From Escherichia phage MN05: a stretch of DNA of 64,000 bases. Location: the sequence record NC_070987.1; one strand, 5' to 3'. The number at the start of each line of letters is the position of its first letter. Within the stretch, counting starts at the first letter, position 1. The notes under the pieces were generated by a model. That model was not told the origin of the DNA. It made no database searches and saw nothing but the letters and a program-made list of their open reading frames with translations. Shown here one piece after another: positions 31,663 to 32,961 of this stretch. Made by a program: the position numbers and the translations under genes.

Positions 31663-32961
31663 TTAGTTATTTGTTTCTACGTCAAAAGAGATTCCACGAC
31701 CCGCCTCATCGGCAAACCGAACTGTACGGGTTTGAGGTTCTAATATTTCAGGGTTGTCAGCAACAAAGCGATCAGCGAGACTCTGGTTGACAGTCTCAGC
31801 GAGTTCCCCATGAGAAGGAATATCAAAATCACCAACAGCGAAACCCTGACCAGAGAACTGACGTGCACTAACAGTCAAACCATTTGATTGACCATTAGAA
31901 CGTCTAGACAACCATCGCCCAAATGAATCGCTAGTAACACCAAGAGCTTCTTCAAAAGATGTTCTCCGGGTAGAGCTTAGGTTTCGTGCTTCGTTTGCTC
32001 GACGTCTTGCAGGGGCTACAAACACCCCTTCAACTGCATTGTGCCGATTAGGTTCATCTTCTCGACCAAGGAGATCTCCTCCTGTATTGGTTGTTAAGTT
32101 TGTCAACCCTTCAGACCAATACGCACTAATCTGACTAGATCCATGAACACTTGACATTAACTGGATTTCTTCATAAGGGATTCCAAAGAATCGACTCATG
32201 TCTTGGTCAACACAATATTGAGGACTTGCTGTGTCGCCAATAAGAGATACTTGACCTTGGTTATTAACCAGATCCCTGACCATCTGAGGTATAGGTTGTT
32301 GCCGAGCATGTGCCATATAATGAAAAGCAACTCCCGGGGTTTGGAACCTTAACACTTGTGAGTTAGGCCACTTCTTGTGGACATATTTAATCTCTCGAGC
32401 AGTCACAACCACTGGAATTGGAGAAGTCATAGCCAAGTATCCATGAACGGTCATGAATAGCTTATCAAGAGTCATAGCACCACGACACATCATAGGAAAA
32501 TTATCTAGAACCTCTTCGATAGAGGTGGGATAGTTAAACATGAATTGGATTCGCGTTCCATGCCACTGAAATTCAATGATATCAGTGAATGTTAATTGAG
32601 AAGTTCCTGCATATGGCTCATCTGTAGCTTCAGCAAGGAGAGACGAATACTCAATATCTTGTGACTCAAGCCACTCTTTCACATTGCTTTCAAGTTCGCT
32701 CCCAAGAGCTTGCCAACGGCCCACTGAAGTGAAAGTGTTTTGTGTTCTTGGTGTTTGCCCTCTGACGATAAAGATATCAATGTCGTGCGGAGCTATGTTA
32801 TTAATAACAGCATCACGAACAGCCCCACCAGTAATGATAGGGCAAATACCGTCTGGAATCAAGTTGTTGTCAATTAATTGTTCAATGAAGTGACGACCAA
32901 CAGTGATATCAGGTTGTTGAGCAACCTTATCTTCAATTTGGTTAATCGGGATAACAATCAT
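31663..32961 (-). CDS. Pol-beta-superfamily nucleotidyltransferase (CCA-adding / poly(A) polymerase-like head domain)
   Basis: GGAVRD...PHDIDIF motif; start trimmed to the ATG immediately after the exonuclease stop. Confidence 0.5.
   Translation of the reverse strand: MIVIPINQIEDKVAQQPDITVGRHFIEQLIDNNLIPDGICPIITGGAVRDAVINNIAPHDIDIFIVRGQTPRTQNTFTSVGRWQALGSELESNVKEWLESQDIEYSSLLAEATDEPYAGTSQLTFTDIIEFQWHGTRIQFMFNYPTSIEEVLDNFPMMCRGAMTLDKLFMTVHGYLAMTSPIPVVVTAREIKYVHKKWPNSQVLRFQTPGVAFHYMAHARQQPIPQMVRDLVNNQGQVSLIGDTASPQYCVDQDMSRFFGIPYEEIQLMSSVHGSSQISAYWSEGLTNLTTNTGGDLLGREDEPNRHNAVEGVFVAPARRRANEARNLSSTRRTSFEEALGVTSDSFGRWLSRRSNGQSNGLTVSARQFSGQGFAVGDFDIPSHGELAETVNQSLADRFVADNPEILEPQTRTVRFADEAGRGISFDVETNN

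Follow-up and report, generated by a model that had tools for sequence, protein, structure and literature searches.

Identification of the nucleotidyltransferase gene

The 64,000-nucleotide stretch of the Escherichia phage MN05 genome analysed here (NC_070987.1; hereafter the window) carries on its minus strand, at 31663..32961, a gene encoding a nucleotidyltransferase (NTase). The product is a member of the Pol-beta superfamily with a core of ~200 residues of the class II head fold, and it belongs to a phage-specific NTase clade that also contains the anti-Gabija protein Gad2 and the small NTases (mini-NTases) of T7-like and phiKMV-like phages. The first-pass annotation of this DNA, made from the sequence alone, had described an open reading frame (ORF) with the motif GGAVRD...D.D, and this was confirmed, the exact form being GGAVRD-x9-DID: the ORF runs from an ATG at 32961 to a stop codon at 31663-31665 and specifies 432 amino acids (aa). 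An alternative GTG start at 33018 gives a longer ORF that runs into the upstream exonuclease gene; the ATG at 32961 is taken as the true start because all of the 42 close homologs (42/42) have MIVIPIN as their N-terminus.

The gene and its parts are listed below, with the ratios of nonsynonymous to synonymous substitution rates (dN/dS) and the AlphaFold confidence (predicted local distance difference test, pLDDT) where these define a part.

31663..32961, minus strand: NTase gene (432 codons and a stop), orthologous to phiEco32 gp73 (phi32_73), phrog_12715 'nucleotidyltransferase' (E 7e-225)
32344..32961, minus strand: residues 1-206, Pol-beta-superfamily NTase domain with a class II head-like fold, dN/dS 0.08-0.10
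32770..32829, minus strand: motif A, residues 45-64, GGAVRDAVINNIAPHDIDIF; G45, G46, R49, D50, D60, D62 and F64 invariant
32581..32583, minus strand: D127, in a predicted beta strand; D or E in 40/40 aligned members
32479..32499, minus strand: residues 155-161, FPMMCRG, aligned with 'FDFTVCMG' of Gad2; P156 invariant, against an invariant Asp in Gad2
32365..32397, minus strand: residues 189-199, REIKYVHKKWP, aligned with 'RVQKYxDKGY' of Gad2; Y193 and K197 invariant
32098..32343, minus strand: residues 207-288, family-specific helical subdomain, pLDDT 84-95, dN/dS 0.28-0.37
31666..32097, minus strand: residues 289-432, predicted disordered tail, dN/dS 0.31-0.48, purifying selection persisting

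Megablast and tblastn searches against phage genomes assigned the window to the phiEco32-like coliphages (Gordonclarkvirinae, Kuravirus), with many records showing 93-95% identity over 4.5 kb. Kuravirus orthologs match the NTase over its full length (76-93% identity), and the phrog_12715 profile covers residues 1-382. The phi32_73 gene is annotated as a 'hypothetical protein' in phiEco32 and its RefSeq label is 'nucleotidyltransferase'. Neither an exact-sequence look-up of the protein in public assemblies nor a search of NCBIfam gave a match, and a BFVD entry from Escherichia phage MN05 is 100% identical to it over residues 1-215. In SU10, the ortholog is one of the early gene products seen by mass spectrometry, with 1 peptide and in a preparation without CsCl purification (PMC4281155). 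The existence and the rough class of the gp73-type gene are already on record, and what is new here is a new subfamily of a known kind of NTase, the gene family itself having been catalogued and loosely annotated.

An exhaustive search of 1.84 billion representative proteins with the family profile returned only 31 representatives at E < 1e-10. The full-length members recovered in this search have 274-482 aa, with the NTase part always N-terminal and followed by 65-280 more residues, and all of the examined genomic contexts of these relatives (P0060, P0061, P0081 and phage records) are modules of the phiEco32 type.

Domain organization and active site

According to the models and alignments, the protein is predicted to consist of three parts, i.e. 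the core (residues 1-206), the helical subdomain (207-288) and a tail of ~145 residues. An AlphaFold model of the N-terminal 215 residues (9-sequence alignment) reached a pLDDT of 86 and a predicted TM-score of 0.84, and the full-length model (40-sequence alignment) is confident for residues 1-288, with block means of 74-97 except in a loop near residue 115. In an alignment spanning three genera (Kuravirus, Nieuwekanaalvirus and Suseptimavirus) the N-terminal conservation extends up to YVHKKWP (residue 199), while the C-terminal part aligns poorly and varies in length (whole proteins of 426-490 aa).

Within the core, GGAVRD occupies residues 45-50 and is followed, nine residues on, by D60-I-D62. 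Judged from these motifs, D60 and D62 are the metal-binding carboxylates of motif A, and D/E127 is a candidate third catalytic carboxylate. The invariant columns among the 40 aligned members are G45, G46, R49, D50, D60, D62, F64, Y117, I128, Q139, P156, Y193 and K197; position 190 is likewise D or E in every one of them. The class II-type active site appears to be intact, and the CCA-adding-type head of the first-pass annotation proved to be a class II head of the CCA/poly(A) polymerase (PAP) type, with D60, D62 and D/E127 in place.

The dN/dS ratio is below 1 throughout the gene (0.08-0.48), and the synonymous divergence (dS) in the core is ~0.7. By these estimates residues 1-206 are under strong purifying selection, and the remainder of the gene appears relaxed yet coding.

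S, G, Q, N and T abound in the tail, which has scattered Phe and a net negative charge; the full-length model falls below pLDDT 50 at residues 291-387 and 410-432. The C-terminal 226 residues (207-432; 31666..32343) contain 0 Lys and 19 Arg, and the net charge of the C-terminal half is -9. The same bias was found in the beyond-core sequences of 26 family representatives (0.5% K, 8.8% R), and lysine is scarce despite the predicted disorder of the region. This depletion could possibly reflect avoidance of a lysine-directed modification, or a 'sticker' composition based on arginine and aromatic residues. Residues 281-300 (YWSEGLTNLTTNTGGDLLGR), which start just before the tail, form a conserved island (97% conserved within Kuravirus). 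Aromatic or acidic-aromatic C-terminal tips are present in many members of the family and of the Gad2 clade (...RFSFN, ...GGWTF, ...EDLLPF, ...KPIF and ...DPFDFNA), and such tips are reminiscent of the docking tips of SSB and T7 gp2.5.

Comparison with CCA-adding enzymes and poly(A) polymerases

The CCA-adding enzymes and PAP I possess a head with motif A (GGxVRD...DxD) and two catalytic carboxylates, a feature in common with the NTase. Beyond the fold and motif A, however, none of the tested defining traits of these enzymes was found. In comparison with the class II CCA enzymes and PAP I (PF01743; PDB 3aql, 1miv, 3h37, 1ou5 and 4wby), the NTase has ~290 folded residues followed by disorder; only ~150 residues superimpose on CCA enzymes, and the inclusion of residues 207-288 lowers the Z score. 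The helical neck, body and tail domains of CCA enzymes and PAP were tested for and are absent from the NTase, and no counterpart of residues 207-288 was found in CCA enzymes, PAP or Gad2. The first-pass annotation doubted that the C-terminal half forms a canonical tRNA-binding body, and this is borne out, in that residues 207-288 add nothing to the CCA/PAP match and the tail has a pLDDT below 50.

In the class II enzymes ribose recognition is the task of motif B (RRD, consensus RRDFTxNA), whose Asp reads the ribose of the nucleoside triphosphate (NTP), and base templating that of motif D (EDxxR). Neither motif has a counterpart among the 26 columns conserved at >= 90% in the 40-member alignment.

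Profile searches gave the same picture. The Pfam PolyA_pol family (PF01743) scored 16.4 bits for the NTase against a gathering cut-off of 23 (20.9-21.7 bits for three homologs), with the alignment stopping at position 84 of 126 of the hidden Markov model, and no RNA-binding domain family was matched in the Pfam search. With hmmsearch, the family profile hit CCA enzymes among PDB sequences at E 0.1-0.7 over only 21-36 residues around motif A; in PDB searches with the protein, the family profile and a Gad2 profile the matches to CCA enzymes and PAP were confined to motif A (E 0.01-0.7), and no solved Gad2-like structure was retrieved. An hhalign comparison of the family with a profile built from PcnB and ten Cca proteins of enterobacteria gave a probability of 15% (E 1.7e-3) over 22 columns (motif A only), and hhalign against single Cca and PcnB sequences was not significant. 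The identity of the protein as a canonical CCA enzyme or PAP is rejected, as motifs, domains and profile coverage all speak against it.

The window also contains a single tRNA gene, for tRNA-Arg(TCT), at 49879..49954 on the minus strand (3' end ...GGGTGCACCA). Both its presence and its encoded CCA had been noted at first pass and were confirmed with ARAGORN, the 3' terminus being GCACCA. This gene lies 17 kb from the NTase gene, and no linkage of a tRNA gene to the NTase was found in the relatives examined.

Relationship to Gad2

Gad2 is the second anti-Gabija protein to have been described, a product of 400 aa of ORF_159 of Bacillus phage SPbetaL7 (Yirmiya et al., bioRxiv 10.1101/2023.05.01.538930). 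Deletion of gad2 renders SPbetaL7 sensitive to Gabija, the protein being needed for evasion of this system; a homolog encoded by a prophage of Brevibacillus laterosporus also cancels Gabija defence, and an NTase domain was predicted in Gad2 by AlphaFold (bioRxiv 10.1101/2023.05.01.538930). The homolog sequences used for comparison were taken from supplementary tables 7 and 10 of the same preprint.

A link between the NTase and Gad2 was already hinted at by Pfam. Precomputed matches to PF26128 ('Gad2') exist for 29 of the 44 close homologs; the strength was looked up for one of these, the SR02 ortholog (P0011), and is 'weak' (E at most 1e-3), and the match of a distant relative (P0063) is unmarked, i.e. 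E is at most 1e-5. A Pfam-A scan never returned PF26128, even for P0063, the model apparently being missing from that copy of the library.

Profile-profile comparison was the only approach that discriminated, all of the single-sequence comparisons being insignificant. With hhalign, the window family aligned with seven Gad2 homologs at 83-91% probability (E 1e-6 to 8e-6) over ~127 columns, spanning residues 34-199 of the NTase and 23-162 of Gad2, and the addition of seven intermediate sequences raised the probability to 97% (E 1e-10, ~130 columns). The aligned motifs extend past motif A and comprise (NTase/Gad2) IQFM/LQMI, NFPMMCRGA/TFDFTVCMGA and REIKYVHKKW/LRVQKYTDKEY. Moreover, the hub family phrog_1614 is touched by Gad2 and by the NTase alike.

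Both are phage-borne proteins of ~400 aa in which a Pol-beta-type NTase domain occupies the N-terminus, and both have the motif series GGxxxx-x8-DxD(I/V)(F/Y)F, IQxM/I, FxxxxCxGA and RxxKYxxKx(W/Y). From the conserved NTase-core motifs of Gad2 (AGG, DxD, F-D-x-T, H...F and P...R...Y), the NTase has GG, DxD, the Phe that precedes the Asp, and R...(K)Y. They differ in several respects: (i) in Gad2 the motif reads GGxITS and the Asp of FDFT is invariant, while the NTase family has GGAVRD and an invariant Pro, so that the invariant Asp107 of Gad2 corresponds to Pro156 here, and His125 of Gad2 is without a clear counterpart; (ii) the C-terminal half of Gad2 is rich in lysine and glutamate, in contrast to the helical subdomain and lysine-free disordered tail of the NTase, and the C-terminal region of Gad2 (~165-400) gave no alignment to the NTase past residue 199; (iii) temperate SPbeta-like phages encode Gad2 in an anti-defence island, while the NTase gene is a core gene in the replication module of virulent podophages. 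In the published model the C-terminal half of Gad2 is reportedly folded. The Asp of Gad2 at the position of P156 is presumably the Asp of the motif B RRD, an assignment of ours rather than of an alignment program.

On these sequence comparisons, the NTase appears as a separate subfamily of the phage NTase clade that includes Gad2, and not as a Gad2 ortholog. The first-pass annotation had named a better match to an unrelated family as evidence that would count against it: a better match does exist, in the Gad2-like NTases, but this family is a related one.

Mini-NTases and other relatives

The phage mini-NTases (phrog_1614, ~170-250 aa; e.g. LKD16 ORF16, DU_RP_I gp11 and a protein of Vibrio phage VP506) have the clade and the motif set in common with the NTase, and like it they adjoin genes for primase/helicase and family A DNA polymerase (PolA). 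They differ in being ~200 aa long, in lacking the long disordered tail and the helical subdomain of residues 207-288, and in having kept the Asp of FD(F/Y)T. Three of them are located as follows.

Ralstonia phage DU_RP_I gp11 (record L014, 5935..6576): mini-NTase, between primase and PolA
Pseudomonas phage LKD16 ORF16 (record L015, 9703..10302): mini-NTase, between helicase and ligase/PolA
Vibrio phage (record L016, about 4929..5640): mini-NTase, about 1 kb upstream of primase-helicase and PolA

The NTase clade is recurrently associated with T7-type replication genes, an association not discussed in the Gad2 paper (bioRxiv 10.1101/2023.05.01.538930). These three mini-NTases of replisome modules have ~200-235 aa; the C-terminus of DU_RP_I gp11 is a zinc-ribbon-like CxxC...CxxC segment, and that of the Vibrio protein is an acidic-aromatic tip (...ADPFDFNA).

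Two further kinds of small NTases are more remote. PDB 2la3 (Streptococcus pneumoniae NP_344798.1, 191 aa) is a stand-alone 'CCA-adding enzyme head domain', but it is bacterial, uncharacterised and tail-less, and a weaker match than the full CCA enzymes. The MenT-type toxins (MenT1, PDB 8an4) are minimal NTases that modify tRNA acceptor ends; their structural match is much weaker, their motif set and their toxin-antitoxin context are different, and no sequence similarity to the NTase was detected.

Genomic context and divergence

The neighbours of the NTase gene, as identified with Pfam, are the following.

33511..35301, minus strand: primase/helicase (DnaB_C)
32963..33517, minus strand: 3'-5' exonuclease subunit of family A DNA polymerase, upstream neighbour
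31120..31653, minus strand: dCTP deaminase, downstream neighbour

The order primase/helicase, PolA exonuclease, NTase and dCTP deaminase is identical in phiEco32, KBNP1711, SU7 and Bas89, and it is kept in the three named genera and in metagenomic relatives down to ~25% identity in the NTase. Since the stop codon of the exonuclease gene ends 1 nt ahead of the NTase ATG, translation of the NTase is probably coupled to that of the exonuclease.

In this phage two separate genes encode the family A DNA polymerase, with the polymerase subunit at 22152..23996 and the exonuclease subunit at 32963..33517 (both on the minus strand, ~9 kb apart). The possibility that the NTase, which follows a lone exonuclease subunit, is a missing replicative polymerase was ruled out by the separate DNA_pol_A gene (22152..23996, minus strand), 8 kb away.

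The NTase gene is a local island of divergence. In comparison with phiEco32 it shows 80.5% identity at the DNA level and 77% at the protein level, against 94-98% (DNA) and 96-100% (protein) for the flanking primase/helicase, exonuclease and dCTP deaminase. In comparison with phage 172-1, few of the fully aligned stretches in the window are as divergent as positions 32001-32750 (80-84% identity vs a median of 94.6%). Pervasive positive selection was rejected as the cause of this fast divergence, given the dN/dS values of 0.08-0.48. A pattern of this kind is common in host-interaction genes, which is no proof of such a role.

Possible function

The interpretation preferred here, though only tentatively, is that the protein is an active NTase that transfers a nucleotidyl group during replication and so blunts a Gabija-type defence, with the helical subdomain binding the acceptor and the tail recruiting a partner. 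The enzyme would be made together with the phage replisome; D60, D62 and D/E127 would hold two metal ions, and a nucleotidyl group would be moved from an NTP or deoxy-NTP (dNTP) onto the 3'-OH of a nucleic-acid end, or possibly onto another nucleotide. This transfer would shield the phage DNA during replication, or the pool of nucleotides, from the nuclease/helicase of a Gabija-type host defence. The helical subdomain (207-288) would bind the acceptor in place of the neck and body that CCA enzymes have, and the lysine-free tail (289-432) would recruit a partner or localise the enzyme. Catalytic competence is suggested by the invariant motif A, by D/E127 and by the dN/dS of 0.08-0.10; what we infer beyond it concerns the substrate, a part in counter-defence and a task for the tail. 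In favour of the proposal count the profile match to Gad2, the constant place among replisome genes, where mini-NTases of the clade also occur, the narrow distribution of the family, the detection of the SU10 protein and a divergence from the neighbouring genes that resembles the signal of an arms race.

Several observations weigh against this proposal. The homology to Gad2 is remote: pairwise BLASTP gave no E value below 0.016, and a single Gad2 sequence reached 6% in hhalign, neither of them significant. It ends at residue 199, the C-terminal halves are unrelated, and Gad2 belongs to phrog_18122 but the NTase to phrog_12715; therefore the function of Gad2 is not simply transferable. The chemistry may differ as well, with P156 in place of the Gad2 Asp. 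In the part of the published Gad2 homolog tables that was examined phiEco32-like phages are absent, and a PADLOC search gave no match. The mechanism of Gad2 is absent from the preprint, and no later mechanistic study was found in the literature; nor did the search find functional work on phiEco32 gp73 or on NTases of the phiKMV ORF16 type, or a paper combining 'Gordonclarkvirinae' and 'Gabija', and no activity, substrate or phenotype is on record for the gp73 subfamily. With dS as high as ~0.7, the excess divergence of the gene is probably due to old alleles moved by recombination and not to pervasive positive selection. Finally, anti-defence genes are usually accessory and located in variable islands, and a core gene fixed in the replication module fits a housekeeping role in replication or nucleotide metabolism equally well.

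Such a role is the main rival: an accessory of replication or of the nucleotide pool, with no part in defence, for instance a terminal transferase of DNA ends, a modifier of primer ends, either of them acting with the split PolA and the primase/helicase, or an enzyme making or consuming a nucleotide derivative. It is considered rather unlikely, yet it accounts for a core gene fixed between the PolA exonuclease subunit and dCTP deaminase and probably translationally coupled, as well as for clade relatives that adjoin the primase/helicase, ligase and PolA genes of the three further phages looked at, and P156, at the presumed position of the motif B Asp, could relax the sugar selectivity. The NTase, however, diverges far faster than the adjoining replisome genes, which is unusual for a housekeeping replication factor, and no DNA-binding domain is detectable in it. 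T7 is not known to have such a gene in the equivalent module, and a general requirement of the replisome is hence not indicated.

A more specific version of the counter-defence proposal, for which the expectation is lower still, is that of an NTase tethered to the replisome, the tail docking the core at the replication machinery and masking ends or nucleotides from Gabija-like defences. The lysine-free tail with its Arg and aromatic residues would dock in the manner of the acidic aromatic tails of T7 gp2.5 and gp4 or of the SSB tip, and the core would cap or extend 3' ends of DNA or RNA, or make a nucleotide derivative, leaving end-sensing or nucleotide-sensing defences untriggered. If true, this would reveal the mechanism of Gad2 and explain why the other podophages looked at here carry mini-NTases among their replication genes.

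About as improbable as tethering is a role in RNA 3'-tailing, in which an enzyme resembling a poly(A) or poly(N) polymerase would mark RNAs of the host or the phage for decay and perhaps direct ribonucleotides into the phage dNTP pathway that the surrounding genes encode. The neck and body by which PAP I holds RNA and ATP are absent here, the sequence similarity to PcnB is insignificant, and neither the tail nor the C-terminal half, with its net charge of -9, offers a basic RNA-binding surface.

The nucleotidylylation of a protein or a small molecule (e.g. AMPylation of a host factor), with the tail as a targeting device or as a self-modified regulatory segment, is less probable again. The matches to enzymes of this kind score well below those to the class II RNA enzymes, their acceptor-binding domains are absent, and the lysine depletion can be explained otherwise.

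The repair of tRNA 3' ends, which the first-pass annotation had put forward, is very doubtful. It would involve a minimal CCA-, CC- or A-adding enzyme acting on tRNAs of the host or of the phage, tRNA-Arg(TCT) among them, for example once a tRNA-targeting defence has attacked these. The superposition of ~150 residues, the PolyA_pol score below threshold, the Cca+PcnB match limited to the 22 columns of motif A, the lack of conserved columns for motifs B and D and the absence of neck, body and tail all argue against it. It is also improbable because the tRNA gene is 17 kb off, encodes its CCA and shows no linkage to the NTase in relatives, the constant neighbours of the NTase being replisome and dNTP genes. 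What survives of the earlier proposal is its fallback, an NTase with another substrate.

An enzymatically dead scaffold that has kept only the fold, and whose effect would come from contacts made by the tail or the helical subdomain, can practically be dismissed: the Gad2-invariant Asp of the FDFT motif is lost (P156) and the tail makes up a large share of the protein, but motif A and the acidic residue 127 are strictly kept among members down to 21-30% identity to the NTase, and the N-terminal domain has a dN/dS of 0.08-0.10.

Few anti-defence proteins are believed to work as enzymes, and Gad2 is among these; a core gene of all phiEco32-like coliphages, together with the replisome-linked mini-NTases, is now tied to its NTase clade. 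The phiEco32-like coliphages are tractable and present in therapy collections such as BASEL, which gives several easy systems in which a substrate could be found. The label 'Class II CCA-adding enzyme' is misleading for such proteins, as it implies tRNA repair, which is not supported by the sequence. Without a defence phenotype, on the other hand, the gp73-type protein stays an ordinary uncharacterised phage NTase.

Other features of the window

Several other regions of the window deserve mention. At 29343..29963 (minus strand) this virulent podophage has a gene for a Dps/ferritin-like protein (Pfam Ferritin, E 4.5e-7), and this gene is kept in the modules of most relatives, beside thioredoxin and ThyX. 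At 30301..30916 (minus strand) there are three tandem paralogous small ORFs of 69, 69 and 65 aa, which correspond to the hypothetical genes 69-71 of phiEco32; their products have a basic middle and endings such as ...SGKVHY, ...SKVIYY and ...NSKVYY. Two adjacent ORFs of ~60 aa at 28908..29282 (minus strand) apparently encode paralogous small membrane proteins (MISLIVWAVWSLIVG... and MLSAIVWGIWAIFIG...).

A cluster at 35521..45096 (minus strand) looks like a system for the modification of peptides or amide bonds. It comprises genes for (i) a gamma-glutamyl cyclotransferase-like protein (35521..35940), (ii) an ATP-grasp-like protein, identified by homology to phi32_80 (36642..37838), (iii) a glutamine amidotransferase (38282..39973) and (iv) an amidoligase (40392..41495), along with further large ORFs. 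An ATP-grasp gene is also found nearby in the Vibrio phage that carries a mini-NTase.

At the scale of the whole window (1..64000), the sign of the GC skew flips near 14 kb and near 60 kb, and these flips match the change in gene direction, structural genes pointing rightward and early and replication genes leftward.

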